The notes below the pieces were generated by a model that was not told where the DNA came from, did not search any database, and saw only the letters and a list, made by a program, of their open reading frames with translations. Source: Nitrososphaeraceae archaeon (GTDB lineage: Archaea > Thermoproteota > Nitrososphaeria > Nitrososphaerales > Nitrososphaeraceae). From it: a stretch of 64,000 nucleotides of DNA. Positions 40,209 through 60,714 of the stretch are shown here, piece by piece. The stretch lies in NCBI GenBank assembly GCA_035297365.1, contig DATGZA010000011.1, positions 1 to 64,000 on the forward strand. The letters run 5' to 3'. A program made the translations under genes and the position numbers. The first letter of the stretch is position 1, and the number at the start of each line of letters is the position of its first letter.

Positions 40209-40410
40209 ATTTACCTACCATTCTTTTTTTTATTTGAATTATTAATTCGTTTAATATTCTAGCAATAGGTCTCCTTCGATGTTATAGATAATGTTAATAT
40301 GGTTACTCCAAATTCGTCATTGTGTAAATATATAAACACTTTGGTTTCTAAAGTATTTAATAACACAATATAAAATGTTATTGAACCCTACTAATACACG
40401 TGGCTCGTAG

Positions 40411-40439
40411 AATAGTCAAGTGTTTTTGACACACAATTT
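40411..40439 (+). repeat. Dispersed GTCAA-N6-TTGAC element, copy A
   Basis: AATAGTCAA GTGTTT TTGACACACAATTT. Confidence 0.8.
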
Positions 40440-40674
40440 GAATTTCAAAATAAGAAATTTGTAGTTGATAATCCTGGTTAAAATAAAACTATTGATCTAA
40501 ATGTTGCCATGACTGTAAATGGTTAGCTAAATGTGTTAGTAATGTGAGTTACACAACATGACAATATAATCAATAGATCCAGAATTTGAAATTCCGAATT
40601 CTTTTCTCTACTAATTTTATAGAAACTTTGATTAGAAAGTATTTTAAAAAGATTCTTTAATAAATAATTTAGGG

Positions 40675-41046
40675 ATGTTCCTAGATAACAAAAATACTTT
40701 TTATTTAGTAGTCATATTGTCTGCTTCATTTTTAATCGGTGGGATGATAACAGCACCGGTAGTTTCTAAAATATATGCTGATCCTGATACCAAATTCTTC
40801 AAAAAAGAAAATATAAAGATACAATATGATAAGAAACACAAAGACAAACACCACAAGTATAACGACAGATGTTATGACAACCATCATTATAAATACAAGC
40901 ACAAATACCACAAGTATAACGACAGATGTTATGACAACCATCATCATAAATATTACAAAGATCATAAACATCATGACAACCATCATCATAAATATTACAA
41001 AGATCATAAGAATTACAAACACGATAGAGAGTATCATAAATACTAA
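40675..41046 (+). CDS. Secreted or anchored His/Lys/Tyr/Asp-rich repeat protein
   Basis: Hydrophobic N-terminus; HKYNDRCYDNHH x2 and DNHHHKYYKDHK x2, from DNA-level duplications. Confidence 0.75.
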   Translation: MFLDNKNTFYLVVILSASFLIGGMITAPVVSKIYADPDTKFFKKENIKIQYDKKHKDKHHKYNDRCYDNHHYKYKHKYHKYNDRCYDNHHHKYYKDHKHHDNHHHKYYKDHKNYKHDREYHKY

Positions 41047-41080
41047 TTTTATTAGAATAATAGGATCTGTAAATTAAAGA

Positions 41081-41192
41081 ACAAATAAAGAAGCAACATA
41101 TAATTACTATCAGAGTTTCGATTGAAAAAAATAATGGACTTATCTTACCAATGGGTAAATTTAAAGTGTTAAAATTAGCAGAAGATAAATAG
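41081..41192 (+). pseudogene. Fragment of a paralog of the cupredoxin-like gene at 9645
   Basis: NKEATYNYY/RVSIEKNNGLILPMGKFKVLKLAEDK versus DKEGTYNYYDRVFLEKNNGSIVPIGEFKTLRVAGD. Confidence 0.7.
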
Positions 41193-41765
41193 CCCAAAAT
41201 CATCCTCCTATAAACAATTATGCTATTGGCTAATTGTACTATACCAAGATAGTTCTCTTTTTTCTTTTCGTACCTTGCAAATAACATTATTTGCTAACAC
41301 CTATTCTTCTTGTCTATATCGTATGGAATTCATGAATTATGTCATTTGAAAATTCAAGGACATTCCTATCATTTTTAGAGTTTTTTTAAACAATTTGTAC
41401 TTGAATATCGGAAAAAAATTACTGGCTTCATAGAATTACGAGAGCTTGATATCATTAAACGACCCTGATTTTTACAATTCTATTTTTTTATACCCAATAC
41501 GATTTGATAACCTTTTAAAATCATTTTGATAATGCTTGTTTCAAATACCTATAAATTTTTCAAAAAGGTTATGAACTATTTATAGGGATATGGTTTTTTA
41601 TCTTAATATTTGCAGAATATTTAGTAATTACCTAAAGAATCAACTTATCTTCGCGATCATTTAACAAATCAAGTATGGTATTGGAAAATTTATCGAGGGT
41701 TCTTTGTTAGTGGCGGCACAAATATTGAAAAATAAGATCGATATGCTATAATACTACTTTTTTTA

Positions 41766-42335
41766 TTGGAAAATGTGGGCTATGATAATGAAGAATATGA
41801 AAAGAAAATGCTTATAGATTTCCTAAAATTAACTAAAGAGAGATTTCATATTTTAATAGATAGTGAAAATGGAGACCTCAGAACCATAATTTCTGATGAT
41901 ATGAGACCTCTTCTTCCTTTGTATGAAAGAACATATAAAGATGTTGAGAAGAATATCGACAGGTGTATGGAGATAATACCAAATATACCATACGGCCTTT
42001 TAGTTCGACATGGATTTACCAATAATCATCTTATTCTTAAATTAATTCAGGTAGATATATGTTGGATAAATATAGTAACTATAAGAAAAGATCCTTTAAA
42101 AAAATTTGATAAAATATACAAGGATCAAAAGGAACCATCTAAGGAAGAAAAAGGTAAATGGGAGTATTTTAAAGATAAACTAAGAAGAAATTGGTATAAA
42201 TTTCTAAGAGCAACTGATAGTTGTATTTTTGAAAGCTTAAATGATATTATTAATACAATGCCGGGCCAGTATGGAATTTTCAGTATGGTTAAAGAATGGA
42301 AAAATTCCGTAGAAATAGCAATTGAAGAAAAATAA
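41766..42335 (+). CDS. Hypothetical helical protein
   Basis: 189-aa ORF; no family recognised. Confidence 0.65.
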   Translation: MENVGYDNEEYEKKMLIDFLKLTKERFHILIDSENGDLRTIISDDMRPLLPLYERTYKDVEKNIDRCMEIIPNIPYGLLVRHGFTNNHLILKLIQVDICWINIVTIRKDPLKKFDKIYKDQKEPSKEEKGKWEYFKDKLRRNWYKFLRATDSCIFESLNDIINTMPGQYGIFSMVKEWKNSVEIAIEEK

Positions 42336-42629
42336 ATCTATGGTACTTAGTATATCAAATTTCATTAAAGTTGAGAAAATTTGTACCTTGATCTTGAAAA
42401 ATTTGTCCCAACTTGAAAATAGAATATCGCAATTAAACTACTAAAATTGATAAATTTACTCTCAAGCTAAACGTACTTGAATTCATTTGAAAATAAGAAA
42501 ATAAAAAAACTAAATCAAGTTTGATTCTCTCTCACACACCACCCTCTGTTGATTCTTTTCTGATGTTTGATATAATTTGAATTGTTGTGTTTTCTATAAA
42601 ATACTTTCCAAATCATATGATGCAGCAGA

Positions 42630-42685
42630 GCCTTGATACTATACGGGCTAGGAGGATAGTCAACTGATTTTGACACAATTTTGTA
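42630..42685 (+). repeat. Dispersed GTCAA-N6-TTGAC element, copy B (long form)
   Basis: GCCTTGATACTATACGGGCTAGGAGGATAGTCAA CTGATT TTGACACAATTTTGTA. Confidence 0.85.
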
Positions 42686-43181
42686 GAGCAAAAATTCAAT
42701 GACCAAACCGGAAGAATTCTGATTTTAATAGAGAACTAATTGTTAGCAATATTTTAAAACAGATATAGATTAATGTAATTGTTTAAATTGTGGTTTTCCT
42801 AACATAAGCCGATTTTTTATTTTAGTATTTTTATCACGATATATTTGTGACTTGCGTTTTCAATTTGTTAAAATATTCTTTTTAAAATGTCTTTTATTCC
42901 TATTATATAAAAGATCTCAATCCAATAATTATATGCATCTACAATTGTCATATTTAATACTTGAGTCGATTGATACATTGATTTTTGCTATTTGAAATAT
43001 GATTCTATTTCTAGTTTTTATCAACGTAATCGCCTTCATTCACATCTCTTTTCTTACTCTCTTGTATATTTGTATGAAAATTTTTAAATTAATCAACGTA
43101 TTGTTTTTTCTTTCTGTTTTGTTTGTTTAAATTATATCCTATCTATCTTTCTGTAGTATCATGGATGTGAATATGCTAGGC

Positions 43182-44618
43182 TCATTTTGAATCGTTATTG
43201 TCAAATCTTTTCTTCCGCCAGTGATCATCTATAGCGTCTCTTTCTTCTATTGCTAACTTTACATAATCTCTAAGATTGTTTTCTGTAACTTCATACGAAA
43301 AATCGCCAACCTGTTTTTGTATTTCCTTCTGTTGTTTTTGTATAATCTTTGTTACCTTCCTCTCTATCTCTTGTTCCATCTGTGCAGTTCCGATGTTACC
43401 AACCAGATCATTCATAGATCCTTTGATTGATTTTCTTAAAGAGATGTCATGTGATATTGATATTGCAGAGAGGTATAATCCAAAACTAAACAAGTACGAA
43501 GATAGCATTACAAGTGAATGAGCAGCAACTCCGTATGTCGGTTGTATTGCCGACGTAGAAAGTGAAATACCAACCATAGTATCACCTATTGCTGCGATGA
43601 TTAGATAATCTTTTAATTTTGATGAGACCAAACTCTTTACAATCATAAAAAAGGCTAGACCAAATAGAACATTTCCTGCTATAGTACCTATTCTAAATAA
43701 AAGTCTAAAAAAATAACGATACTGTTCGTCTACTCCTGATAAACCTTCACCTGAAAAGAAGCCTGGCGCCTTTCCAATCAAGTAAAATATCAATGGAAGT
43801 GACAAAATTATCCAAAGTAATAGCGGGAGTTTACCTACTCTCTGATAAAGGGTACGTAATAGTGAGGTAGATGCAATCCATCTAAATCCAAATGCTATTG
43901 GAAGAACCGTGGAATTGAGAAGATTATAAAATATTAGACTTGAATTTGGCATTATATAAAGAAAAGTAGTATCTGAATTCACTATTTTGTATATTATTTC
44001 GCCATCATATTTCTCAGAGGCTTCATATAAGAAAGATGATTCTGTCGTTACTCCTGGTGGCGACTTTTCTTGTACTACCTGTATTAATAATAATTTAGTC
44101 CCGGCATCTTCTAATATCGATGAACCAAGTGTCAATGCTGCAATTCCATAAAATAAAATAACGAGATTTTTATAACTAGTTAATTTATACCATGAAATTA
44201 ATTTGAAGGATATGATGGCTAATATTATGGTTGATGCTATTGAACTAACTGCGAAAATTGAAGGAGATAGAAATCTATTACCAGTATTACTAATAAGCAT
44301 AAGCAGGAGTACCAGAAATAAGGAAAATTGAATTATAACCATACTCCAATGCATTAGATTAATAAAACGGGATTTGGTTCGGATATCCTTACTTATTTGT
44401 GTAGTGTATCCTAGAAGGATCCAAGATCCTATACCATATCCAATAACCACAGTCAAAATAAACATTAGGATTTCCATATCCTTGGTATAAGGCAAAATCT
44501 GCCTGGTCATCAATAAGTCAATAATCAAAATAAAAAATATAGCAACTCCTGTTATGACAGGTATTTTCCTGTTACGCATAATAGGTATTTGGAGAAAAAA
44601 GTATCTACCAAGACTCAT
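43182..44618 (-). CDS. Third paralog of the polytopic membrane protein with helical tail
   Basis: LSLPLIFY, QPTYG and SA.SISHDISLRKSI...NIGTAQMEQE. Confidence 0.85.
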   Translation of the reverse strand: MSLGRYFFLQIPIMRNRKIPVITGVAIFFILIIDLLMTRQILPYTKDMEILMFILTVVIGYGIGSWILLGYTTQISKDIRTKSRFINLMHWSMVIIQFSLFLVLLLMLISNTGNRFLSPSIFAVSSIASTIILAIISFKLISWYKLTSYKNLVILFYGIAALTLGSSILEDAGTKLLLIQVVQEKSPPGVTTESSFLYEASEKYDGEIIYKIVNSDTTFLYIMPNSSLIFYNLLNSTVLPIAFGFRWIASTSLLRTLYQRVGKLPLLLWIILSLPLIFYLIGKAPGFFSGEGLSGVDEQYRYFFRLLFRIGTIAGNVLFGLAFFMIVKSLVSSKLKDYLIIAAIGDTMVGISLSTSAIQPTYGVAAHSLVMLSSYLFSFGLYLSAISISHDISLRKSIKGSMNDLVGNIGTAQMEQEIERKVTKIIQKQQKEIQKQVGDFSYEVTENNLRDYVKLAIEERDAIDDHWRKKRFDNNDSK

Positions 44619-45193
44619 GATTTAGATGCCCCCTAGAATTATTTAAATTAATTAAACTTTGATAATAAGAAATCATATTATCAATTAATAAAAATAATAA
44701 AATTAAATTTTTGTAGAAGGAAGATGCTTTTATATATACTATAAAATAAGTTTAAAAAGTATCGCATTTTCGCAATTTTTGTATTGCTTCAATTAATTGA
44801 GGAAGCATATTGATCCTTTATAACATACAAAATTTGTTTGTATTATAATATTAAAAAAATTAGTTAAAAAATAAGATATTAATTAATAAGTTTTCAATTA
44901 TTGAATTTCTATTCTGTTAATATCAGAATTATAACTGTAAAATCTTTTCCTGCTATTATCTGCTTTTTTTATTAATTATGACAAAAAGACAGATTATCAC
45001 TCAATCTACCGACATAAATTCATATCGGCTTGATATTCCAGTTCAACTTTCATCGATCGTTTCACTTCTTTTCTTACAGTCGTGTTTGAATATTCTTTCA
45101 TAAATTATAGCTATCTTTTCATTTAATTTGGTATTTAATATTTTTTTTAATTTTATTGATTGCGTATATACAATTTTATAGATTGCATATATA

Positions 45194-46147
45194 CTAATAT
45201 CCTTTAATATGTAACCCTGAGTCGTATACAATATTCTTCATCTGAAAAATTTGATAACCATTTTCAAATAAATATTTCATTTCCTTTTCAAATAAATCAG
45301 GTTTGATACTATAATCATCTTCACTATAATCAATCATATGATAAACGAGGATTGGAATTGCCCTTATTACGTATTCGCTATTGTATCTTGTTTGACTATC
45401 TACTATTTCTTTAAATTTTTCATACATTTCCTCATCAGAATATCCACCAGATTTTTTATAGGCTTCATGACTCAATCCAGTTATTGTATACCTTTTGAAA
45501 TCTAATTGTGTTGTATTTTCATTATTTTTATGTGAAGCATGTTGACATTGATTTTCGTGTTTATCATCATATACAAAACCTTCATCGTCATCTTTACATG
45601 AAAAAAACATAAGTGGCTCAGTTGCGGTCCGAGCAAGATAGTAATTGTCAGCAATAATTTTTATTATATTTTTGTTTGTATCGCCATCATTATATGGGAA
45701 GGAGAAACTGGTTACATTAAATCCTTTTTCATGTAGACATCTTTTGGATTCAATAATTTCATATTTTATATCATTATCTGATAATTTCCCAAGTCGTTTA
45801 TGGTTCATTGAATGAGAACCAATTTCATGGCCTTCTTGGGCAAGCGACTGGATATCATCCCAATTCATTCTATCGTCTTTACCTACAAAATTACAAATGA
45901 TATAGAAGGTAGCCTTAAAATTGTAAATATCTAAAATTGGTTTTGCGTAAGTGAACTGACTTAACATTCCATCATCAAATGTTAAAATTGCTGCTTTTAT
46001 TGGTTCAGCCAAGGAATAAGAAATCAGAACAGGAGAAGAAGATAATAATATTATCATTAAAAAAAGGAATACTGTTAAACAATACATAGTAAGAATTTCA
46101 AAAATGTGCAAGATATTTAGGTATTGCTTTAAATTGATTTTGTACAA
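45194..46147 (-). CDS. Polysaccharide deacetylase (CE4/NodB-like) with permuted motif order
   Basis: LTFDDG, HEIGSHSMNH and FSFPY; IPILVYH lies at the C-terminus. Confidence 0.88.
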   Translation of the reverse strand: MYKINLKQYLNILHIFEILTMYCLTVFLFLMIILLSSSPVLISYSLAEPIKAAILTFDDGMLSQFTYAKPILDIYNFKATFYIICNFVGKDDRMNWDDIQSLAQEGHEIGSHSMNHKRLGKLSDNDIKYEIIESKRCLHEKGFNVTSFSFPYNDGDTNKNIIKIIADNYYLARTATEPLMFFSCKDDDEGFVYDDKHENQCQHASHKNNENTTQLDFKRYTITGLSHEAYKKSGGYSDEEMYEKFKEIVDSQTRYNSEYVIRAIPILVYHMIDYSEDDYSIKPDLFEKEMKYLFENGYQIFQMKNIVYDSGLHIKGY

Positions 46148-46255
46148 TTACATGATTAAATGTTATGCTATTACTTTATGTAGATAAATTCATTTTCATA
46201 TTTGTTTTATCTTTGTAATTACTGATATATTTATTCTTATGTATTCAAACTCATG

Positions 46256-46282
46256 ATAGTCAACTGTTTTTGACACAATTTT
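46256..46282 (+). repeat. Dispersed GTCAA-N6-TTGAC element, copy C
   Basis: ATAGTCAA CTGTTT TTGACACAATTTT. Confidence 0.85.
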
Positions 46283-46383
46283 CTAATCCATAACAACTAA
46301 ATGTAATAAGATCATATCTATGATACTTTTATTGTAATCTAATAGAAAAAATTTTATGTGAATGTTAAAATGTTTTTTTATAA

Positions 46384-46695
46384 ATGTCTCAGTCTCAAAT
46401 TTTTGATATAGATACATTTTTATCAAATTTTCCTAAATCTAGATATTTTATTGAGGTAATGAATACACCAACCATGGAAGTTGGGATAATAAACTTGAAG
46501 AAAAGTCAAAATGACACTCAAGAACCTCACGCTTCAGATGAAATTTATTACGTTATAAGTGGGAGCGGAACAATAGATATAGATGGAATCGAAAATGAAG
46601 TTAATCCTGGAAAAATAATTTATATTCCGAAAAAAATCCCTCACTCATTTCATGCCATTACTAAAGAATTAATTGTTTTATACGTACTAGCATGA
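46384..46695 (+). CDS. Cupin domain protein
   Basis: PHASDEIYYVISGSG...IYIPKKIPHSF. Confidence 0.9.
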   Translation: MSQSQIFDIDTFLSNFPKSRYFIEVMNTPTMEVGIINLKKSQNDTQEPHASDEIYYVISGSGTIDIDGIENEVNPGKIIYIPKKIPHSFHAITKELIVLYVLA

Positions 46696-47079
46696 ATACA
46701 TAATTAGGTCTCAATAAATAATTAGATTAATAGGTGTCTAATTCTGCTACTAATGATATAGGTTGTACATAATCATTTGACACCGTTTAATGCAAAAAGT
46801 TAAATATGACTTCAAACCTGCAAAAAACTTTTGTGATTATTTCCGGTATCCCAATCAGATAAATAACAAATCCTTGATATTTACTAGTTTGAAAGAGCGT
46901 AAAGAAGAACCTTGGGAAATACTGCTTGGTTTAAACTCTTTATCTTTTTTAATTTTTTTATCCTAATTGTTGAAATCGGAATTAGATTTTTATATACTTC
47001 CTTTTTATTCTTCTATTTGTCAGTATTATAATCAAATTTACCAACTTTATTTATAAGTAGCAATACTTTTTATTTTATA

Positions 47080-47370
47080 ATGAAATGTATTATTTGCAAA
47101 CGTAATAGAGTAGAGATACCTGATAAATCCTCTAATTATTGTTGGCAACATCAACAAATTTACATTAGTATAAAAAATCTATATGTTAGTGTGTTCAAAG
47201 CATATGGTTCTATTTCTTGGCAAAATTTTTTACTTAAAGTTCTAGATAAAAAAATTGACAAACCTTGGAAAAATTCTTTAATTGACTACTATGGAAAATT
47301 ATCTCCAGGAATTTTAAACGTCGTTAATTCGGAATTGCAGTTGTCACAAAATGGCAAAAAATTAAAATGA
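47080..47370 (+). CDS. Small hypothetical protein with N-terminal CxxC...CxxH
   Basis: MKCIICKR...YCWQH...AYGSISW. Confidence 0.6.
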   Translation: MKCIICKRNRVEIPDKSSNYCWQHQQIYISIKNLYVSVFKAYGSISWQNFLLKVLDKKIDKPWKNSLIDYYGKLSPGILNVVNSELQLSQNGKKLK

Positions 47371-47827
47371 TATTTTCAAAATTAATGTTATAATTAATAA
47401 ATCAACTATAAGTAATAATTAACTTTTGGTAATTGATAAATATTTCATTCTATTTTTTAAAATGACAATACTAATCAAGGTATTACAAAAGTATTCAGGA
47501 AAAATTTCAACTGAAGATAATTAATTGTTACCGTCAGATAGAAAGAGATAATTAACCGATTCGGTTATCACGTATGTAATACTTTTTATATGCTTGACTA
47601 TTTTGTTATTATTACAACTACTTAATCTTCTTTAGAAAGAAACATTTCATATGAAGTGTAACAATCGATATCTTGATGCTCTCTTGTTCCTTGTATATTT
47701 TTGCAATGATGTCAGAGCTCTATTATTTAATATATAAACAAATTATTTTTGAATGCACTACAGTCTGATTTGGATTTATCATGGTCATCATATATTTTAG
47801 TAAAAAAACCAAGTAGTTGAAATAAAT

Positions 47828-48685
47828 ATGGTTTTTATATTATATATTTTGTATATAAAAATGGATCAAATAGAAAAATTATGTGTTCCTCCATTAAAAG
47901 AAGGAAAAAGAGATGACGAAATAAGCTTATCTAAATGGAATCCAGATGATACTTTCGGTAAGGAAAAAGAGGAAATAGAAAAAGAGTTAGATGAGATCCT
48001 CCCAGAATTGTCTGAGCTTCAATACAAATTATATGCTGAGAGGGAAAAGTCATTATTAATTATTCTGCAGGGAACAGATGCATCAGGAAAAGATGGAGTA
48101 ATACGTAATGTAATTCGAGTTTTTAATCCTGCAGGATGCAAGGTAGAATCATTTAAAGTTCCAACATCAGAGGAATTATCTCATGATTTTCTTTGGCGTA
48201 TCCATAAGGTAATTCCTTCAAAAGGTTATATTGGAATATTTAATCGATCTCACTATGAAGATGTTATAGAAGTACGTGTAAATAATCTAGTATCAGAAAC
48301 AATTTGGTCACAAAGATATAGACAAATTAATGATTTTGAAAGACATCTATCAGAAAATAATATAAGGATAGTAAAATTTTTTTTATATATAAGCAAGAAA
48401 GAGCAAATAGATAGACTACGTGATCGAGTTTTAGATCCTTCAGAAAATTGGAAGGTTTCTGCAGATGATTATGGGAGAACAAAAAAATGGGATCTGTATA
48501 TGAAAGCTTATGAAGATGCCTTGAAATTATGTAGTACTGAGTGGACACCTTGGTATGTAGTTCCAGCTAATAAAAAGTGGTTTAGAAATTGGGTTGTAGC
48601 TAAAGTTATCAGGAAAAATTTGCTAAAACTCGATCCTAATTTTCCCAATAAAAAGGTCGACAAAAGTTTGTTGGATAATATCTGA
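47828..48685 (+). CDS. ppk2: Polyphosphate kinase 2 family protein
   Basis: QGTDASGKDG Walker A, HDFLWR, FNRSHYEDV and PWYVVPANKKW; start may be ATG47861. Confidence 0.93.
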   Translation: MVFILYILYIKMDQIEKLCVPPLKEGKRDDEISLSKWNPDDTFGKEKEEIEKELDEILPELSELQYKLYAEREKSLLIILQGTDASGKDGVIRNVIRVFNPAGCKVESFKVPTSEELSHDFLWRIHKVIPSKGYIGIFNRSHYEDVIEVRVNNLVSETIWSQRYRQINDFERHLSENNIRIVKFFLYISKKEQIDRLRDRVLDPSENWKVSADDYGRTKKWDLYMKAYEDALKLCSTEWTPWYVVPANKKWFRNWVVAKVIRKNLLKLDPNFPNKKVDKSLLDNI

Positions 48686-48882
48686 GATTTTTTGATCCAA
48701 TTTGATGCTATTTGAATAAATAAAAGATCTACTGCATGGTGTGCCTTGGATAAATTTTTTTATAAATTTAAAATAAAAATGTAAGATATTATAAATTCCA
48801 TATTAGTTTTTACCATGAAGCATATTCAATCATCTGGATTTTTACATGATCACTAATTACGTAATAGATCTTGATTATAAAA

Positions 48883-49600: not shown

Positions 49601-49744
49601 AAGTTAAACTTATTATTGATGATAAGCGTATTTTTAATGTAATAATAAACACTATGGCATAATCAGGTTTTATCGGATCATTGCCAAGTTATAAAAATTT
49701 GATTAAGTATAAAAAGAAAAAAGAAGAAATTATTTATTTTTTAT

Positions 49745-50786: not shown

Positions 50787-51045
50787 TTTCATGGAAAGTC
50801 GAGAATAATCTAAAGAACAGTCATTATCACATCTCATAAATGTCAACTGGGTATTTAATATTATACACTTTAGTATTACTGAAATATCAGGTTTGACAAA
50901 AAAACGCTAAGATAATGTCATTTAAAAAAATTTTTCAGAAGAGTAGAAAAAGTCGAGAAATTTTAGTTTCTGCTTTTACTGCTGTATCTGTTGGAATTAT
51001 TATCTCTCAACGTGTTTATAATCCTACTAAATCAACAGAAATTAT

Positions 51046-51173
51046 GGCCATGTTAAGTTAAGGAAAATAGATGGATAGAAAGGAAAAAATCTTGTAAAAG
51101 TGAGGACTGTACAGCACAGAACATATAGAATTATGTAATATGACTATTACTTTACCCTTAAGTTTACAGGGCC
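51046..51173. mobile_element. 128-bp MITE with IS6-type terminal inverted repeats
   Basis: Left GGCCATGTTAAGTTAAGG versus right (reverse complement) GGCCCTGTAAACTTAAGG, 15/18 identical; resembles the ends at 48883 and 49600. Confidence 0.7.
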
Positions 51174-51182
51174 AAAAATAAT

Positions 51183-52415
51183 CTATATCGACCTCTGATT
51201 TTCCCTAACAGTATATGTTCTGTCCTTCCAATTAACAGCGTGTTTATAACCTGAATTAATTATAGATGTAAAAAATGCAATAAATACAAAAGTACATGCT
51301 AATGGAAAGGCTATCGAATAGTAGATATTTTGAACCATTAAATATTTTAAATGCAAAATACTTGTAATTATCAACAATAAAATTGATGTTATGGCTAAAG
51401 ATAGCAAAACTACATTTAGGTTGGTCATATAATCTGTTATATGTTCTTGCTGTAAGACAGTGGTCATAATTGAAAATGGCAATACAATTAGAGGTAGTAA
51501 GAGCAAAAGAAATGTTGCAATTACCATCAAACACGCCTTTATTTTTTCTCTTTTGTATATGGAAATCATTAATCTTATAAGTCCATGCCAAAGAGTAGAA
51601 GGGTCTCTTGCCCATAAAGCCTCTATGTGATCTTTGCCATTAACTACTTTAAGTTTAAAGCCTTTCTCTTTTACTTTTCTTCCTAGTGCACCATCTTCTA
51701 CAATTTCTTCCCTTACTGCTTTATGAGTACCTATTGCCTCATAGGTTTTTCTTGTTATTATAAAAAAACTCCCAAAGAGGTATCCTATCTTGCTATTGGG
51801 ATTATTTGCTTTTAGCGCAGAGTATCTAGCCAAAGAAAGAGTCCAAAGTATAGGTAGAGTAATCTTTGTCCAAAAATCAGTTGCCAATATTTTGGGCATT
51901 GCAGTAAGAACATCAAGTTCTTCAGATAAAAAATGATTCACAGCTAAAGAGATAGAGGTTAAAGAATGTATAGTATCCGCATCAGTAAAAACAATGAGAT
52001 CGCCTGTTGATTTAAGATATCCCTGATGGCAAGCCCAATTCTTTCCTGTCCAGTAATCTGGCTTTGGTTCTGCATTAAGATACACAACTCTAGAATTTGT
52101 TGTGCTATAATTCTTAATTATTTCAGCTGTTCTATCAGATGAAGAATCGTTAATTACAACTATTTCATAATCGGAATAGTCTTGCTCAATTAAAGTTTCT
52201 AGACATTTCTCTATGTATTTTTCCTCATTTCTTGCAGGAACAATTATGCTCACCTTGGGAAGAACGATGTTTTTTTTAGATGATGTGAAAGAATGTAGTT
52301 TTGGTACCGCTATTAGAGATTTTATAGTATAAACAAGAAAATATACCCATGAAAAGAAAACACTAGAAATAATAGCTACTAACGTTATTAATACAGCAAA
52401 ATTATATTCTACCAA
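51183..52415 (-). CDS. GT2 glycosyltransferase, membrane-associated
   Basis: VSIIVPARNEE, NDSSSDRT, WTGKNWAC, FTDAD and VEDGALG. Confidence 0.92.
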   Translation of the reverse strand: MVEYNFAVLITLVAIISSVFFSWVYFLVYTIKSLIAVPKLHSFTSSKKNIVLPKVSIIVPARNEEKYIEKCLETLIEQDYSDYEIVVINDSSSDRTAEIIKNYSTTNSRVVYLNAEPKPDYWTGKNWACHQGYLKSTGDLIVFTDADTIHSLTSISLAVNHFLSEELDVLTAMPKILATDFWTKITLPILWTLSLARYSALKANNPNSKIGYLFGSFFIITRKTYEAIGTHKAVREEIVEDGALGRKVKEKGFKLKVVNGKDHIEALWARDPSTLWHGLIRLMISIYKREKIKACLMVIATFLLLLLPLIVLPFSIMTTVLQQEHITDYMTNLNVVLLSLAITSILLLIITSILHLKYLMVQNIYYSIAFPLACTFVFIAFFTSIINSGYKHAVNWKDRTYTVRENQRSI

Positions 52416-52773
52416 TTAATATAAAGAAACCTTTCTTATTACATATAAATAATATTTATATTATTTTATGCGTCAATATCTATAAATACATCAAAATTTA
52501 TGAGAATGCCTTGACACGTAATTGGGATCTGTCTTTTACAAATGCAAATTTTTATATTGTTAAAGTTTTAGATAATTAAAAATTATTTTTTATATGCTTT
52601 ACGATAGATATGGGAAAGTAAAAATAAATCTTATTGTTATTTTCAGAGAACTATTCATCCATGTTGTTCTTTTGATATCTAGCAGTTAAATATAATATTA
52701 TAACGATAATATAAAAATAATCATAGAGTATTTACTACCATGGATGTTTTGCTCAATTCACTGACTTGGATAA

Positions 52774-53460
52774 TTAACAATATATTAATAAATTTGAAAA
52801 AAGAAAGATAGTATTATAGATGAATTGATCTATTGGATAAGGATGATAAGTTGTCTTAAAAAAACTGCCTAGTCTAGTTAAAATATTCTCATTAAATAAG
52901 TTAAGCTCTTTATTATATGCGCATTTATTTAATTCATTTACATCGTTGTTACAACTTTGAATAAGTAGTAAAATTCTTTTATTCTGGAAAATATCATAAG
53001 GAAGAAAAGTGATTTGACTTTCTTTTCCATTGAATTTTTCTAAAATACTTCCTGATTTACCCTCCAATGCAAACTCAACAGATGTAAGATTTGAAAACTC
53101 CCCTTTTTTCTCATGGGGTTTTTTTTGAGGTTGAGGTCTAATTTTCATTAGAGTCTCCAATCTTTACTCCATTTTTGTCAATTATTACCAATCTGGTATT
53201 ATTTTGCAAATTAAAATTGGTCATAATTGTTAAAATTAATAGTTCCATACACCATTCCTATCAAATCATTTTCTTTTATTACTAGAACTAGCAATTACTG
53301 CCAGATTTCTTCCTGTCGCTTTAGAAATAATTGCATCGCTCAAGTTTTTTTAGTCTGTTCTACTGCTTGATAATAATCTCTAAATGAAAAATTGCTTGTA
53401 GTTAGATTTAATTGACGTTCAAATGGTTCATCAAAATACGCCTCTCCGTTATTTTTATTA
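52774..53460 (-). pseudogene. Decayed Cache-like sensor-domain gene
   Basis: Fragments GEAYFDEPFERQLNLTTSNFSFRDYYQAV, AIISKATGRNLAVIA and LIGMVYGTINF lie in shifting frames with stops. Confidence 0.55.
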
Positions 53461-53508
53461 AGTGAATTGTTAGATCATCATTTAATAGAATAAATCAAAT
53501 GCATTAAA

Positions 53509-54558
53509 TTATAATTTTTGCGGAGTAGTAATCAGCTTTCCAAACAATTGTGATTCCATCATTTTTATGTGACCCATTACCATATCTTCAAAAGGATAAA
53601 CTGTGTCTATTATGGCTTTTATTTTTCCTTTACTTGTCCATTTAATTACTTCTTCTAGTCCTGCACGTGTTCCTTGGGTAGCTCCGATAAGATTTAGTCC
53701 CTTAAAGAACAGATATCTCAAGTCTAATTTTGAATCATACCCTGTGGTGGCTCCTGTAGATACTAATGTACCTCCCATATTTAAGAGGCTAACTTCTTGT
53801 GCAAATACAGACTTTCCTATATGTTCAAAAATAATATCTACACCTTGATTATTTGTTAAAGTTCTAACTTTCTTATACCAATCCGACTCTCTATGATTTA
53901 CAACATGATGAGCACCTAATTCAAGGCATTTATCCATTTTTTCTTGTGTACCAGCTGTTGCAATAACATCACAATTAAACAACTTTGCAATTTGAATACC
54001 TGCTATTCCCATACCACTTCCACCTCCCATAATCAAAACTGTTTGCCCTGGTTGAATATTAGCTCTAGTAACTAACATGTGCCAAGCTGTCATTCCAACC
54101 ATAGAAATAGCTGCTGCATCTTGAAAAGAGATATTATCTGGGATTTTTATAACGTTGACTTCTGGTAAATATGTATATTGAGCAAACCCTCCCCATAAAG
54201 GACCAGTTTGAAAACCCCATACTTGTCTTTGACGGCAATCATATTCTTTGCCAGCAGTACAGTCCTTACATATTCTACAGGTTAGATTGGGATGTCCTAC
54301 TATTCGGTCTCCTTTTTTAATATCTAAAATATTTTCTCCAATATCCACTACTGTTCCAGAAACATCACTTCCAGAAATGTGAGGAAGAGGAATCTTAATT
54401 GGTTCTCCCCAGATTCCCCAAAGATCATTGTAATTATAAGAGACTGCTTCAACTTTTATAAGAACTTGATTATGCTTGATTTTTGGGATTTCTATATCTT
54501 CTATTTTTACAACTTTTCTTGGATCCTTATTATGCTCACGATATACAGCTGCTTTCAT
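53509..54558 (-). CDS. Zinc-binding MDR alcohol dehydrogenase/quinone oxidoreductase
   Basis: PHISGSDVSG, C..C..C...C, GGGSGMG and FGKL. Confidence 0.92.
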   Translation of the reverse strand: MKAAVYREHNKDPRKVVKIEDIEIPKIKHNQVLIKVEAVSYNYNDLWGIWGEPIKIPLPHISGSDVSGTVVDIGENILDIKKGDRIVGHPNLTCRICKDCTAGKEYDCRQRQVWGFQTGPLWGGFAQYTYLPEVNVIKIPDNISFQDAAAISMVGMTAWHMLVTRANIQPGQTVLIMGGGSGMGIAGIQIAKLFNCDVIATAGTQEKMDKCLELGAHHVVNHRESDWYKKVRTLTNNQGVDIIFEHIGKSVFAQEVSLLNMGGTLVSTGATTGYDSKLDLRYLFFKGLNLIGATQGTRAGLEEVIKWTSKGKIKAIIDTVYPFEDMVMGHIKMMESQLFGKLITTPQKL

Positions 54559-54670
54559 GTCACTAAAAAATACAATGTGAAATTTAAAGAATAGGTTTTT
54601 AAAGTATTGTAAAAAAATCTACAAATAGAAACTAGTAATAGCAATATTATAGAAATAAAAAGCAGTTAAA

Positions 54671-55628
54671 TTAATCTTCAAGAAATGTATTTATCACTTT
54701 AATTAATCTTTCAGGGTACTGAAACATCAACGCATGACCACCATCCTTGAAGTGTGCTAGCCATGCTCCTGGAATTTTCTCTATAAGTATCATAGAATTA
54801 GCAGATGATAAGACAAGATCATTAGTTCCTGTCACTACAAGAGTATCTTGTGATATATCTTTTAATTGATCACATATTCCTTCAGACGAGAAAATTACGT
54901 CTGCTTGTCTTTTAAGAATCTCAGCAGGTGGTAACTCAAATGAGGCAAATTTTTCCAAGTAATCCGTATTTTGTTTTATCCAATCTTGAGTAAATAGTAG
55001 AGGAATAATTCGTTTCTTTAAATCGTCAGTAGAAGCAGATTGATTTGTCACTTGATTAAACATGTCTGGATTTGGTGGAGTTGATTGATTTCCACCACAA
55101 TAAGAAACATATATTATTAAATCATCAACTTTGCCTTGATAGTTTGATGCTAATTTCTGGGCAATCATTCCACCCAATGAATATCCCAAGATGTCAAATT
55201 TGTTAATCTTAAGAGCATCTAGTAATCCTATACTATCCTTTACAAATTGATCAATTGAGAAATTTTTAGATCCTACAGTAGTGTTACCAATACCATGGTT
55301 ATCAAAAACTATGACTGTATGATTTACAGATAATCCTTTCAAAAAATAGGATCCAGTCATTCATAGATCCCGCATATCCTATTATTAGTAAAATTGGATC
55401 TCCTTTGTTAAAGATTTTATATGAAATATCTCTATCTCCAACTTTAATTTGCTTGGATAGATTATTATCTAATTTGCTTATGTTACTATTATTGACTGAA
55501 TTTATAATTTGACCATAAATTAAAACTGGATGATAGTAATTACCAATCATTACCAAACCAAGAGTAATGGTTACAGCAATAATTACTACAATATTGAATT
55601 GCGAAATCATTATCATTATTATCTTCAT
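54671..55628 (-). pseudogene. Secreted alpha/beta hydrolase split by a frameshift near 55350
   Basis: GDPILLIIGYAGSMNDW joins FLKGLSVNHTVIVFDNHGIG; GYSLGG nucleophile, GTNDLV and GGHALMFQ. Confidence 0.85.
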
Positions 55629-55688
55629 CCTCCTTGTTTTTTAATTGACGTACATTATTCGTCTACTTTTTCAAGAACTTCTATGTTG

Positions 55689-55997
55689 TTATTCGGAAAA
55701 AAGAATTTTCCGTTTGCTGAATATGACGAATAAGGTCCAAAAAATACCACTAACCCTGTCTTTAGAACGGCGAATTTCATGTCCGCGAAATTTCGTAGTA
55801 TCTTGACGATCCTTGGTACAAAATAGACCTTGCTCTTCAACATATCTTAGATTTTTTTCCAAGCAAATGATCCAATATGCTGCTATTTCTGCAACCTCAA
55901 TATCTTTATCTTTAAAGTTTGCTCCTATTAGAGAATATTCTAATTTGTATTCATCTAGATAAGATTCTAGAACCTGGAAGTTTACTTTTTCCTTCAC
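55689..55997 (-). CDS. Hypothetical protein
   Basis: 102-aa ORF with GTG start; no family recognised. Confidence 0.45.
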   Translation of the reverse strand: MKEKVNFQVLESYLDEYKLEYSLIGANFKDKDIEVAEIAAYWIICLEKNLRYVEEQGLFCTKDRQDTTKFRGHEIRRSKDRVSGIFWTLFVIFSKRKILFSE

Positions 55998-56222
55998 ATA
56001 ACAAGTTACCTAACATACTTAGTCGTTAATTTATTTAATTGTTTCATTTTTATAAAATATATAGTTTGCAATATTTTGTTTTCTAAAACATTAGCAGAAT
56101 CAGAATCAATATTTAATTCTTCATTAAAGATAACAAGAAAAATCTAAGAAGCAAATGGTCAAGGAGAGTAAATGATTAAGAACTATTAAATAATCACAAA
56201 AATAATTTGGGACTGATCTATT

Positions 56223-56633
56223 TTAATTAAATTTGTCGAGTAAAGATGATTTACATGGTATGGAATAGGTTACGTTTACTTCGACCCCATTATCATCCTT
56301 CATATAATCATTATTTTTATCATCAAAAAAACTTATCACATAGTCATCACGATAGATATCATCTGCTATTACATAATCGTCAAAACCACCAGTATTATTT
56401 GTAGCAAAATAACCGTACGGATCAACAAATCCAGTTGAATTAATGAATTCCCAGTAAACGTTACCATCTCTATTGAATCCATTTACTGTGAAATTTACTC
56501 TATGATCTGACAATTTTCCACATTCCGGAGAGACTTGAACGATTGGTTTAATAGCATAAATCGTATTATGTTCAGGAAGAGTATTTAGTGCAAAGACAAT
56601 TATTGTAATCAATGGAAAAAGCAAAAGTTTCAT
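56223..56633 (-). CDS. Secreted Ig-like hypothetical protein
   Basis: Signal peptide; VSPECG...GF..GYFATNNTGGF...IPC. Confidence 0.75.
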   Translation of the reverse strand: MKLLLFPLITIIVFALNTLPEHNTIYAIKPIVQVSPECGKLSDHRVNFTVNGFNRDGNVYWEFINSTGFVDPYGYFATNNTGGFDDYVIADDIYRDDYVISFFDDKNNDYMKDDNGVEVNVTYSIPCKSSLLDKFN

Positions 56634-57074
56634 AGGTTTTTCTGTGTATCGTCTATTTTAAATATTACTATATGGTTTAAAAAAAACAACCCATCATTAA
56701 AGAAAATAAAAAAGATATACATGGTAAAAATCTTCCTGTTCCTTTCAAACTTATCTGTTTAAAGAAAGAAAATTAAATTTCTTTATCTAAAACTATAGGA
56801 TTTAATATCTTATGATTAGTTTATTATTAAAAATTTAAATAATATATAAGAACATCATTTGATAGTAATATCGCTAGAGTAATTATAAGTTGATTAATTA
56901 ATTAGGTCAGTAAAAGAAGAAAAAGAGGATTTTCGCTTCATGCTTGACAATCTAAATCCCCCCATGTGTCTGTCCGTCACGATTATTGTCTATCCCATCA
57001 TTACAGAAACGAGATTCACTTGTTGGTGGGTCAATTACTCCCTCATATGCTAGACACTCTATTATGACACTGAT

Positions 57075-57296
57075 CTATTGTACGGTCAATCCTGATATAT
57101 TTTCAATAATCTGTATTAGCTGAGGAGTTTCTTGATCACTGTTTGGTGTATCAGGCAGAGGGTAACACAATATTTCAATTGATATTACTCTAGCAAGTGA
57201 TAATAGACATTCAATTTGCGTTTCGCTTAGAATTGAAAAGCAATCTTCACATGTTTGTTCTTCTGGGTTTATATTATCAATAAATGATTTGTTCAA
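57075..57296 (-). pseudogene. Fragment of a Cys-containing secreted-protein C-terminal domain
   Basis: EQTCEDCFSILSETQI; no clear start or signal peptide. Confidence 0.4.
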
Positions 57297-57389
57297 ATTA
57301 CAGTCTAATATTATTTCTAACAGAACAAGTTAGCACTATACATTATGATTAGGCACTAGTTTATATATTGTAAAATAGTAGGATATAGT

Positions 57390-57569
57390 ATGAATTTAGA
57401 GAACATAACTTACAAGATAAAGTGCTCATTTTGCCAAAATGATTTAAAGTATGTTGTCAGCAAAGAAAAAGACGATCATTTAAGAATGGAAATCTATTCA
57501 TGTTTGTTTTGCAATATAACGTATAACGAATATCCAAGAATAATCAAAGCCTCTAAAAGAGTAGAGTAG
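57390..57569 (+). CDS. 59-aa zinc-ribbon microprotein
   Basis: MNLENITYKIKCSFCQ...YSCLFCNITYNEYPR...; TATA (TTTATATA) about 25 bp upstream; not in the track. Confidence 0.7.
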   Translation: MNLENITYKIKCSFCQNDLKYVVSKEKDDHLRMEIYSCLFCNITYNEYPRIIKASKRVE

Positions 57570-57656
57570 GAAAAGAATGACCTTAAATCTTTTCTATTCT
57601 TTTTCCATTTCTCCGAAAAGGCAATTCTTGTACCAGTAAAGAAAAATATTTTATAG

Positions 57657-57845
57657 ATGGTAGGCGGAACATATGGAATAACGGGTTTAGGTGTGATCGG
57701 CGGCGGTCAAATATTTGGTGTTGTGATTGTGGCATTAGGTGGAGTTGCAATGGTTTCTGCTTTAATAGTGGAATATCAAATCAAAAGAACGACATTAGAC
57801 ACACAACCAATAGTTATCAATTTAAATTATATTAGAAAGATATAG
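57657..57845 (+). CDS. Small Gly-rich membrane protein
   Basis: GGTYG.TGLG..GGGQI...LGG.AM.S.L; paralog of 59859. Confidence 0.65.
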   Translation: MVGGTYGITGLGVIGGGQIFGVVIVALGGVAMVSALIVEYQIKRTTLDTQPIVINLNYIRKI

Positions 57846-58057
57846 AAATGTGAATATATAGTGCCTAATTTGATAATCAGATTAATAATTGAAATAAATT
57901 ATCTCTTATCATTTATTTATAGTGAATAAAAATAACTACTGATAATTCTTCAAAAATATTTATAAAGAGATCAATAATACCTTGTAATGTAAATGATCTT
58001 TTTGATTATCATGCACGAAATGGTGCACTAGAAAGACTTATTCCTCCTTGGAGCGGT

Positions 58058-59359
58058 TTGAACATAGTTAGTCAAAAAGGAGGAATCGATAATGATGCTA
58101 TCTCAATTTTTCGAATAAATATTGGTGCTCCAGTAAGTTTCAAATGGGTTGCTAAACATTTTGGTTATATTCACAATAAACAATTTCAGGATAAAATGAT
58201 AAAAGGTCCATTCAAAAAATGGATTCATACTCATTCTTTTATATCTCAAGGATCAAATCAATGCATTATAGAAGATAAAATAGATTATGCTCTAAAATTT
58301 GATAAAATAGGATCTAAAATATTACAAAAAAGAATTCAAAATTACTTGAATCAATTATTTCTTTATCGTTATCGCATTTTAGTTAATGATATCTATTTTG
58401 AAAAAATAGGATTAGAAAAAGGAAAAAAAATTCTTATTACAGGCTCTCATGGATTGATAGGATCTGCTCTTATCCCATTATTAATTAACGTAGGTAAACA
58501 CAATGTTACTTATCTTGTAAGACCTAATAAAAATAAATATTCTACCTCAAATAAAGGTTATAAAAATATAATATATTGGGATCCTAAGCATAAAAAATTA
58601 AATCATCATGAACTGGAAGGATTTGATATAATCATTCATCTCGCAGGCGAAAATATATTTGGAAGATGGACAAATATAAAGAAAAACAAAATATCAGATA
58701 GCCGTATTAAAAGTACAACTCTTTTATCTGAATCTTTATCAAAGCTCTCAAATCCTCCATCATTATTAATATGTGCTTCAGCAATTGGATATTATGGTAA
58801 TAGACCTAATGAATCTTTAACAGAGGATAGTAGTCCAGGAAAGGGATTTCTGTCTGAAGTATGTCAAAAATGGGAAAATGCAACAAAAGATGCAACTGAG
58901 ATAGGAATAAGAGTAGTAAATACACGTTTTGGCATGGTATTAACGCCAAAAGGAGGTATTTTACAAAAATTAGTTGGACCTTTTAAATTAGGTTTAGGAA
59001 TAACAATTGGTGGAAATAAAGATCAATTTATTAGCTGGATCTCAATAGAAGATGTTATAAAAAGTATATTTTATTCAATAACAAATACATCAATTAGAGG
59101 AGCTATTAACATCGTGTCTCCTCATCCAGTAACACATTTAGAATTTTCAAATACACTCAAAAAAATACTCAATCCTAAATTATCAATCTCAATAAATCCA
59201 AATATAACCAAACTAATTTTTGGGCAAATGTCTGATGAATTACTATCTACAGATACCTATGTTATTCCTAAAAAATTAATTTCAATTGGATACAAATTTT
59301 TTAATCTAGAATTGGAGGATACTCTTAGATTCTTACTTGGAAAAATGGAATTAAAATAA
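58058..59359 (+). CDS. SRPBCC plus TIGR01777-type NAD-dependent epimerase fusion
   Basis: GPFKKWIHTHSF, ILITGSHGLIG, HLAGENI and ASAIGYYG; frame extends upstream to 57932 (FDYHARNGALERLIPPW). Confidence 0.9.
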   Translation: MNIVSQKGGIDNDAISIFRINIGAPVSFKWVAKHFGYIHNKQFQDKMIKGPFKKWIHTHSFISQGSNQCIIEDKIDYALKFDKIGSKILQKRIQNYLNQLFLYRYRILVNDIYFEKIGLEKGKKILITGSHGLIGSALIPLLINVGKHNVTYLVRPNKNKYSTSNKGYKNIIYWDPKHKKLNHHELEGFDIIIHLAGENIFGRWTNIKKNKISDSRIKSTTLLSESLSKLSNPPSLLICASAIGYYGNRPNESLTEDSSPGKGFLSEVCQKWENATKDATEIGIRVVNTRFGMVLTPKGGILQKLVGPFKLGLGITIGGNKDQFISWISIEDVIKSIFYSITNTSIRGAINIVSPHPVTHLEFSNTLKKILNPKLSISINPNITKLIFGQMSDELLSTDTYVIPKKLISIGYKFFNLELEDTLRFLLGKMELK

Positions 59360-59858
59360 TATACAAGATTTGTATTTAACTATCTAACGATACTTTTTAT
59401 TTTTAAAACAAACCTTCAAATGCAAATTAGATTCAGTTATTAATACATTACAAAGGTTATGGATTTCTATCTATACTTGAGCCTTTTACCAATCCATAGC
59501 CAAATGAAATTTTGAAATGATTTTATAAATATGATGTAAATTATAAATTTTAGATTTTGTCTCTAATATCTCTAAGATACTTTTACAATGACCAAAATTC
59601 AACAATCAGGCGATGATAAAAAGCATACTTTGTACTATCATTCAAATAAACAAGTTTTTAAACAGGACAGCTTTTACTATTGATTGCTACGGAGTAAAAT
59701 GAATTTTTTGCATGGTTATGTGTATTATATTGCAGCGTCTGTAATATCCATCATCTATGTCTATAATATTGTGCCCAAGCATTTTTCTTATAGGATAAGT
59801 TAGCACTATAAAATAAAATTACCACTAGTTTATATATTGCAGAATGTTATAAGATTGT

Positions 59859-60059
59859 ATGAACATAATAAAAAATACGACTTATGGTCTTATAGGAGGA
59901 ACATACGGGGTGGCTGGCTTAGGTGCATTAGATGGTGGACAAATTTTGGCAATTGCAAGTTTAACATTAGGTGGGTTAGCAATGATTAGTGGTTTGATAT
60001 TTAGAAACCAATTACAGAGAAAGAAATTAGATACAAAAGTAGCAATGGAAATGAGATAA
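59859..60059 (+). CDS. Small Gly-rich membrane protein (paralog of 57657)
   Basis: GGTYGVAGLGALDGGQI...LGGLAMISGL. Confidence 0.7.
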   Translation: MNIIKNTTYGLIGGTYGVAGLGALDGGQILAIASLTLGGLAMISGLIFRNQLQRKKLDTKVAMEMR

Positions 60060-60520
60060 TAGAAAACAATCACCGTGAATAACCAAATTTAATATATTTT
60101 TTATTATGTGCTAGTTTGTTGGTTCTAAGATGTTTCAATTATTTTAATTTCTTAATTGTGTAGACCATTAAAAGATATACTTGTTTATCCATAAATAGTC
60201 ATTCCAAATAGTAATTCATTTTTCCTCGAGATCTTCTTGTTTTTTATCTTGTACTAAAAAAATATAATAATTTGTTCTTTCTGTTGTAAATTCATTAGAT
60301 TAGCGTCAATAAATTCCGAAAAACTTAAGAACCTTTAGAATATTACTTTGGTATCATTAAGTCCTACCTGTTCTCATATATTCATAAAATTCAATTAACA
60401 AACTTGAATTTGACTTGTTGTCTAGTTTTCTAACTTTTTCAAAAGTATCTTTGAGTTTTGTAGGGCATTTTGGACCTGTAATATTATCTTCCAATTGGTA
60501 GTATACGAGCCCAATTGGTT

Positions 60521-60564
60521 GACGGGCTCTGAGAATAGTCAACTGTTTTTGACTCAATTTTGTA
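60521..60564 (+). repeat. Dispersed GTCAA-N6-TTGAC element, copy E
   Basis: GACGGGCTCTGAGAATAGTCAA CTGTTT TTGACTCAATTTTGTA. Confidence 0.85.
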
Positions 60565-60714
60565 TTTTGGAAACCAAAAAATTAGGAGATCGTCAAATAC
60601 TTTTATTATTTCCACATTCAATTGAATTATTATCATTTTCTTTTACTTTATTATATCTGCATTTTTTATTCTTATCTACTTCTATTATTACTGTTCCAAG
60701 GCCACGAAAATGAT

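Follow-up and report, generated by a model that had tools for sequence, protein, structure and literature searches.

Co-oriented tRNA-Arg-derived junctions in a soil Nitrososphaerales genus: a probable accretion array of small integrative elements

Integrated mobile elements of archaea, those of Thaumarchaeota included, are bounded by attachment (att) sites with a median length of 17 bp, and 57% of the surveyed integrations lie in tRNA genes (Krupovic et al. 2019, PMC6563490). The cryptic elements of that survey range from 2.6 to 98 kb with a median of 17 kb, and re-use of one att site, which gives arrays of elements, has been noted there for archaea and for Thaumarchaeota. Here we analyze a stretch of 64,000 nucleotides (hereafter, the window) from a Nitrososphaeraceae archaeon, comprising positions 1–64000 of the 151.6-kb contig C11. 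A preliminary description of the window had pointed out five co-oriented sites of the form GTCAA-N6-TTGAC and had read them as att- or dif-like scars delimiting accessory gene cassettes. We consider it likely that the five sites are att-type junctions of small integrative elements that target tRNA-Arg and that have formed an accretion or cassette array in one genus of soil Nitrososphaerales. The junctions are named A to E in the window and F, G and so on to Q further along C11. Our literature searches found no description of this array.

The closest known kind of system is the array of tyrosine-integrase elements that re-use one tRNA-gene att site (PMC6563490), and tRNA-Arg is not mentioned in the main text of that survey. 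Like those arrays, the locus has short att repeats derived from a tRNA 3′ end, an integrase beside the att site, and accessory cargo. It departs from them in several respects: at least 21 junctions lie within about 100 kb; a conserved 22-nt block, where exchange maps, stands beside the tRNA fragment; and left and right neighbours have been reshuffled in many combinations across the genus. In contrast to cryptic integrated elements with their median of 17 kb, the modules are often 1.6–5 kb long and consist of a single gene without an integrase. In streptococci, integrative conjugative elements are accompanied by integrase-less cis-mobilisable elements that accrete in tandem at a single tRNA-type site. 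The modules described here are likewise att-bounded, mostly integrase-less, and could be moved by a neighbour's integrase, but they belong to a different domain of life, have far more junctions, and come without conjugation genes in the annotated part of the island.

The source assembly (labelled G000) has 2.52 Mb in 110 contigs with 30.5% G+C, and C11 makes up 6% of it. The metagenome runs that contain the window sequence are from soil. For comparison we used 24 other genomes of the same genus (labelled G001 and so on, with fetched loci labelled L020 and so on) and 16 genomes from 16 other families of the order. One of them, G017, shares synteny with C11 over the interval of about 32–85 kb, where the two are 92–95% identical.

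The exact motif occurs in the window at 40415, 42659, 46259 and 60538, each time on the + strand. Only 0.07 matches are expected by chance, and none of 100 shuffles gave four. The fifth copy, at 50760, has one mismatch (TTGAA). The consensus proposed earlier fits the sequences as we read them, with departures in A (spacer GTGTTT, an insertion in the right tail) and with TTGACTCA in E. The sites had been placed outside credible genes, and all five indeed lie between open reading frames (ORFs) selected by hexamer score; the small minus-strand ORF over E is a broken integrase start. A search of the genome with the 28-nt core, allowing up to five substitutions, gave 19 copies, of which 17 lie on C11 between 40.4 and 137.8 kb, all on the + strand. 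A covariance model made from these 19 copies, which we used for the genome-wide and cross-genome searches, gave 27 matches in the genome at E ≤ 1, including 20 strong ones (E ≤ 4.5e-10): 17 on C11 and one each on C26, C60 and C6. The count, strand bias and clustering that the preliminary description had proposed to check are therefore 17 of 17 C11 copies on one strand and 17 of the 20 strong matches on one contig. The repeat family is present in all 24 other genomes of the genus (1–53 matches each) and gave no covariance-model match in the 16 genomes of the other families. Among the 150 matches listed (317 more exist), 21 of 24 contigs outside G000 with two or more matches carry them on a single strand. 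The preliminary description had also suspected a degenerate reverse copy at 31706–31730. This copy is unsupported, because the covariance model finds nothing there at E ≤ 10 with filters off; the place surfaces only in a loose 16-mer search that yields mostly chance matches, and it has neither tRNA fragment nor arm. A weak model match at 34735–34813 (E 0.033) was taken as chance: it lies inside a conserved 184-amino-acid ORF and recurs at the syntenic place in G017.

Each copy of the repeat is a composite junction of about 87 bp with four parts. On the + strand these are an integrase-proximal arm (of type T1, T2, T3 or T4), a tRNA fragment, a variable 8-nt half-site followed by a 6-nt spacer, and a near-invariant block, TTTTGACACAATTTTGTAGTTC. 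The tRNA part, CGGGCTCGGAGG, corresponds to the final 12 nt of tRNA-Arg(TCG) in reverse complement. It is the element that had been noted earlier as a GC-rich extension and recommended for comparison with tRNA 3′ ends; as had been seen, it is common to B and D and occurs in related versions in A and E. It is missing from C. Homology among the copies extends upstream for at most about 75 nt and downstream only where a paralogous gene follows.

For quantitative comparisons we collected 126 distinct junctions from G000, 400 kb of G017 and the fetched loci, removing duplicates and excluding junctions less than 330 nt (left) or 280 nt (right) from a sequence end. The 12-nt tRNA fragment matches at nine or more positions in 85 of the 126 and at all 12 in 36. 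The left half-site matches 7–8 of 8 positions of the right half-site's complement in only 51, and the spacer is 9 nt long in 11. G010 and G002 account for most of these longer spacers (CTGCTGATT, CTGCTAATT and CTACTGATT), G001 and G019 for one each. The commonest left half-site is ATAGTCAA in G000 and G010 and mostly TGTGTGAA across the genus. Half-site and spacer variants are partly genome-specific (compare the G010 and G002 junctions at L050, L083, L090 and L097 with those of G000), which hints at homogenisation of junctions within a genome. Readings of the 5′ part as a short ORF (MYQSLD... on the + strand, VSKTVDYPPSPY... on the − strand) or as a C/D-box RNA were dropped, because the arm types disagree in frame and in boxes and the conservation has no codon periodicity. 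A likeness to domain V of group II introns was considered and rejected, the element being too short.

The connection with the tRNA gene can be followed in G017. The left flank of copy Q (contig positions 137574–137776) is 91.7% identical to a G017 stretch, and the homology ends where the tRNA body would start. The G017 counterpart of this flank leads, in place of a core, to an intact tRNA-Arg(TCG) encoded on the opposite strand (L020:7352–7426). The sequence that follows the intact tRNA is the T3 arm, and behind it lies a 436-amino-acid ORF (L020:7485–8792); this layout of tRNA, arm and ORF recurs in a second genome (L041). In the window, the homology between the left flank of junction E and the integrase-side sequence of G017 stops at 60533. 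A tRNA-Arg-like locus in G012 was considered as an empty attB and rejected, since its tRNA-like sequence is degenerate and leads into a T2-like arm. Scans for tRNA genes in the window and in the rest of C11 gave none.

We call the 436-amino-acid ORF family a putative divergent tyrosine integrase, on the basis of profile scores below the curated threshold. All three family members tested matched PF00589 with 26.3 (the 436-amino-acid ORF), 22.8 and 17.4 bits, against a cut-off of 27.1, and the best NCBIfam model was that of archaeal XerA, with 28–31 bits against a cut-off of 220. Atlas look-alikes of the ORF at 0.99 are Nitrososphaerota integrase clusters. A PDB sequence search with a single integrase protein had no matches at E ≤ 0.01, and one with a five-member profile returned nothing significant, only four unrelated matches with E values of 0.33–0.94. 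The family occurs in 23 of the 25 genomes of the genus, in some of them (G003, G016, G017, G010) as full-length open frames, and a near-full or full gene lies directly beside a junction at L045 and L062 (G016:C100). An integrase N-terminus lies within 330 nt of the junction in 12 of the 126 cases, always reading away from it. In the window, a remnant of this kind aligns with residues 2–104 of the G017 integrase at 43% identity by tblastn, or with residues 2–124 when eight internal stops are included. The statement in the preliminary description that the window has no recombinase gene therefore holds for intact genes but overlooked this broken N-terminus (60114–60464, − strand).

Two further groups of integrase-like genes were noticed. 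At L043, L044, L046 and L047, relatives of the integrase (56–73% identity) are preceded by another GC-rich fragment (…CCCGACGGGCCCG) and a similar arm, which suggests sister lineages aimed at another tRNA. In G000 itself, C12:33265–34378 has a tRNA-Thr(CGT) followed by an intact 468-amino-acid tyrosine-integrase-like ORF with 23% identity to the family linked to tRNA-Arg. This is probably a separate integrated element.

Could the junctions instead belong to a true Xer/dif, pdif or integron system? Each site has an inverted pair of 5–8 bp around a mostly 6-nt spacer, as Xer/dif and pdif sites do; a tyrosine recombinase is probably involved here as well; the co-oriented sites separate gene modules; and the weak best NCBIfam match of the integrase is an XerA model. 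We nevertheless regard this identity as very improbable. The XerA score is far below its threshold, there are at least 20 sites instead of one dif, the arms are often imperfect, and the spacer may be 6 or 9 nt long. Modules of the pdif type alternate in orientation, whereas all sites here point the same way. The dif or pdif identity that had been proposed earlier is thus not supported, while the att-like part of that proposal, with accessory cassettes between the sites, stands.

The comparison with integrons, including clusters of attC sites lacking integron-integrases (CALINs), has a similar outcome. As in those systems (Ghaly et al. 2022, PMC9668308), there is a co-oriented array of modules, many sites have no integrase nearby, and the array serves as a store of accessory genes. 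Those reported from archaea to date are classical, with attC sites and IntI (PMC9668308). Here there is no attC-type folded site: an RNAalifold consensus has no predicted pairs, and the palindrome has no compensatory changes and 11 unpaired cells. Moreover, the genes have no common orientation and appear to have their own promoters, a module may contain as many as about ten of them, and a tRNA fragment is part of the sites. Scans with PF00589 and NCBIfam models, and with no model for an IntI-specific domain, identified no IntI-type integrase.

Gene content changes at these sites between species. Junction C of G000 has two counterparts among the G017 cores, and between these lies a 3.26-kb module that G000 lacks and that is found whole in none of the 24 other genomes. 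The left flank of C occurs at eight loci in other genomes: four have arm and core (with three distinct right neighbours), one has the arm next to sequence of the second junction family described below, and three have no site. When G000 and G017 are added, this flank has five different right neighbours. Other modules have likewise changed partners. The major facilitator superfamily (MFS) module between J and K occurs in G014 at 95% identity, there placed between another arm (left) and a second-family junction (right); the K–L module, with ORF102 and an alcohol dehydrogenase (ADH), is also present in G010 and G001 with other left neighbours; and the Kelch module to the right of L is found in G006, again with another left neighbour.

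The same pattern is seen when G000 and G017 are aligned over longer distances. From contig position 32000 on, we obtained 52 homology blocks of at least 200 nt and at least 75% identity, and 10 of their 104 ends, which are not all independent, fall in junction intervals, versus 1.08 expected, or 2.0 if only intergenic DNA is considered. The block that ends at junction G stops at the end of the G core, and blocks start at the cores of M, P, Q and H. Among the 126 junctions, flank homology is two-sided in only 4 pairs, left-only in 48 and right-only in 62 (the pairs not being independent). After grouping of the flanks by homology, more than one partner group was seen for 24 of the 27 right-flank groups and for 14 of the 16 left-flank groups.

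The module found only in G017 contains, at L025:4646–4787, a sequence of 125–140 nt that is present on many contigs of many genomes of the genus, among them G012 and G018, where junctions are nearly absent. This dispersed repeat is distinct from the junctions and possibly a miniature inverted-repeat transposable element (MITE).

At which point within the junction are the two sides exchanged? We compared identity column by column for three classes of pairs (left-only, right-only and unrelated), using raw values as well as means per homology group. Linkage to the left flank was seen for the arm, the tRNA fragment and the outer left half-site: in columns 46–48 the group-averaged identity is 0.67–0.78 for left-only pairs, versus 0.44–0.56 for right-only and 0.45–0.47 for unrelated pairs. 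Spacer position 4 also leans to the left flank (0.72 versus 0.56 and 0.53). The TTTTGACACAATTTTGTAGTT stretch is too invariant for a linkage signal, and the C of GTAGTTC is the first column linked to the right flank. This places the exchange point in the interval from the inner left half-site to GTAGTTC, within the palindrome or invariant block and outside the 12-nt tRNA part. Whether synteny breaks fall at the spacer had been proposed as a check; flanks do break in the junctions, and the exchange interval contains the spacer, but the data do not narrow the interval to the spacer itself. The 9-nt spacers, the modest number of matching half-sites and the palindrome changes, which are never compensated, count against a strict core-type geometry. 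Within the att-junction model, we find it fairly probable that exchange between junctions is site-specific and mediated by the integrase, the alternative being host recombination through the short identical block.

A regulatory role is another possibility to be weighed, since the palindrome recalls the site of a dimeric regulator, T-runs follow the hairpin, and some copies are followed at a distance of about 90 nt by a gene on the + strand (e.g., PNPOx paralogues). On this reading the repeat, present many times in a stress island, would act in cis as an operator or upstream activating site, or would encode a small non-coding RNA. The orientation of the sites is independent of that of the genes: all 17 are on the + strand, while the flanking hexamer-scored ORFs are convergent in 5 cases, divergent in 4, tandem on + in 4 and tandem on − in 4. 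The window has no Rfam family, RNAalifold gives no consensus fold, there is no covariation, and the 5′ part consists of a tRNA 3′ fragment and an integrase-side arm. We give this explanation very little credence.

A second junction family accompanies the first. It has a 19-nt tRNA fragment, the same T1–T3 arms, and different sequences on the other side. Its members on C11 (90439, 106264, 134710 and 143378) have the orientation of the first family, and an additional one is found at C6:194. In G017, a complete integrated element of 4.6 kb (L020:7352–12055) is bounded by a 19-nt direct repeat and contains the tRNA-Arg(TCG), the integrase, a 154-amino-acid ORF and a SIR2-like gene, which is a possible defence gene. 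The array extends over about 100 kb in G000 and about 210 kb in G017. In the latter, sites of both families have the orientation of the tRNA below about 1.170 Mb and are inverted above 1.1766 Mb; the switch, on C10 between 1,169,967 and 1,176,632 (L021), suggests either that some 180 kb of the array were inverted as one piece or that two arrays meet tail to tail.

Such a strand switch, together with the strict strand bias and the hairpin-like parts, could also be expected of relics of a MITE or of a single-strand transposon of the insertion sequence (IS) type IS200/IS605, whose orientation follows the direction of replication. The genome, at 97% completeness, has no match to the Y1 transposase (PF01797) or to TnpB (PF07282). 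No terminal inverted repeats or target duplications were seen, nor paired ends in the flank comparison. In addition, the copies are clustered in one island rather than spread along the replichore, and the element is a composite of tRNA fragment and integrase arm. Of the explanations considered here, we find this one the hardest to credit.

If the junctions are att-type, as we think likely, the following mechanism may account for the array. Elements with a divergent tyrosine integrase would enter at the 3′ end of tRNA-Arg(TCG), and each entry would leave a junction, so that the array accretes; repeated entry and recombination between junctions would pile modules into a co-oriented array. Recombination between junctions would excise, insert and swap modules, and with exchange inside the palindrome or invariant block any left module could come to lie beside any right module. 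Modules without a trace of integrase may have lost it, or may have been moved in trans. From these patterns we infer the direction of events, the catalysis of exchange by the integrase, and the movement of integrase-less modules in trans.

Several observations weigh against this mechanism. The exchange maps to the longest perfect identity, which is also where homology-driven recombination would cross over. The pairs in the flank statistics include kin genomes and paralogues. Several indels between G000 and G017 are not bounded by cores, or enclose a junction. The assignment of the integrase rests on sub-threshold profile matches, with PDB searches that gave no significant match, and 114 of the 126 junctions have no integrase trace. 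In G000 the integrase family amounts to seven matches, all fragments or broken and none intact, and no tRNA-Arg(TCG) was found in the 110 contigs of its assembly. Contigs from two other studies, about 99.5% identical to the window, are colinear with it across B and C (one 7.3-kb contig), D and E, and the only clean indel in them (57033–59441) lies away from the junctions. Most of the G017 array runs opposite to the intact tRNA, and the 120 kb past the far end of the array contain no tRNA.

Some of these points would suit a different view, in which the junctions are inert relics and the reshuffling results from host homologous recombination between identical blocks of 22–30 nt. The place of the exchange interval, the lack of an intact integrase in G000 and the colinearity of near-identical strains all fit it, as do indels that end at microhomologies off the cores and orthologous cores of G000 and G017 that have gathered substitutions much as their flanks have. 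Against it, the block keeps 85–98% pairwise identity per column among unrelated junctions, while the neighbouring half-site and tRNA fragment vary. The 110 one-sided pairs versus 4 two-sided ones, in flanks that are still 75–95% identical, imply very frequent exchange for so short a repeat. Furthermore, a module unique to one of 25 genomes and placed exactly between two cores needs the insertion of a circle, which is inefficient through 22 nt of homology, and intact integrase genes lie directly beside junctions in several genomes. We consider inert relics unlikely, and return to the reading of the sites as att-type junctions.

In G000 the array is probably inactive now, unless another recombinase acts, because every detected copy of the integrase family is broken. 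Contig joints and loose ends at 42655–42686 and 60522–60564 look like paralogous junction copies that map partly on the core, and so are unusable as evidence for circles. Contigs from RNA libraries do not cover the junctions, except for one with a K-like copy and unlike flanks; being contigs alone, they have no bearing on transcription.

The junctions and modules of the window are collected in Table 1. The modules hold 1–10 accessory genes each, mostly with stress, detoxification, metal and transport functions.

Table 1. Junctions, integrase remnant and gene modules in and next to the window
Feature	Position	Strand	Structure or content	Remarks
Junction A	40363..40451	+	Arm T2; degenerate tRNA-Arg 3′ fragment (reverse complement); half-site ATAGTCAA; spacer GTGTTT; small insertion in block	Model 71.8 bits; orthologous junction kept in G017
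Junction B	42608..42694	+	Arm T1 (about 75 nt conserved)	Model 83.7 bits; both flanks conserved with G017
Junction B, tRNA fragment	42644–42655	+	CGGGCTAGGAGG	
Junction B, half-site	42656–42663	+		
Junction B, spacer	42664–42669	+	CTGATT	
Junction B, block	42670–42686	+	TTGACACAATTTTGTAG	
Junction C	46208..46294	+	Arm T4; no full tRNA fragment; core 46256–46283	Model match
Junction D	50708..50795	+	Arm T1; degenerate tRNA fragment; right half-site TTGAA	Model 69.9 bits; both flanks conserved with G017
Integrase N-terminal remnant	60114..60464	−	Broken	Beside junction E, reads away from E
Junction E	60487..60573	+	Arm T3; tRNA fragment CGGGCTCTGAGA	Model 81 bits
Junction F	66070–66156 (contig)			Beyond the window
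Module A-B	40452..42607		189-amino-acid ORF at 41766–42335; weak 123-amino-acid ORF	
Module B-C	42695..46207		478-amino-acid ORF (−); polysaccharide deacetylase (−)	
Module C-D	46295..50707		Cupin; 96-amino-acid ORF; PPK2 polyphosphate kinase; 185-amino-acid ORF (−)	
Module D-E	50796..60486		GT2 glycosyltransferase; Zn-alcohol dehydrogenase; alpha/beta hydrolase; epimerase; integrase remnant	
Module E-F, start	60574..64000		DJ-1/PfpI, then NDH2-type oxidoreductase	

Three other stretches of the window differ among the genomes or metagenomes compared. The indel at 57033–59441 is a 2409-bp segment with a 433-amino-acid NAD-dependent epimerase gene, which contigs of two other soil or aquatic metagenomes skip. 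The stretch 48886–49543, over a weak 104-amino-acid ORF, has four copies at 69–82% identity in the 240 kb of G017 examined, one of which takes the place of the E-containing segment in the syntenic region; the stretch may represent a further repeat family or the remnant of a mobile element. At 23739–31500 there is a cluster of a MoxR-type AAA ATPase, DUF58 and VWA/BatA genes with their neighbours. The syntenic place in G017 lacks this cluster and has 3.7 kb of other sequence.

The ammonia-oxidising archaea of soils are key nitrifiers, and their acquisition of accessory genes is poorly known. The array looks like a main flexible island of one uncultured genus and offers a concrete mechanism for the gain, loss and exchange of modules. 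A stronger version of this idea would be an independently evolved integron-like platform for gene capture in ammonia-oxidising archaea, in which a non-IntI tyrosine integrase excises integrase-less modules, often of one gene and each with a 22-nt core beside a fossil tRNA-Arg fragment, and puts them back in trans. Arrays of 100–200 kb with stress, detoxification and metal genes would be built and continually reshuffled in this way, the block being the site of strand exchange. We hold this to be possible, though doubtful. If it is true that modules move in trans, the array would represent a second, independent route to integron-like arrays. To our knowledge, soil ammonia-oxidising archaea have no genetic system, and a defined integrase together with its short att core could become a tool for site-specific integration in them. 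The model of the ~87-bp junction marks island boundaries and the joints between modules in metagenome-assembled genomes.

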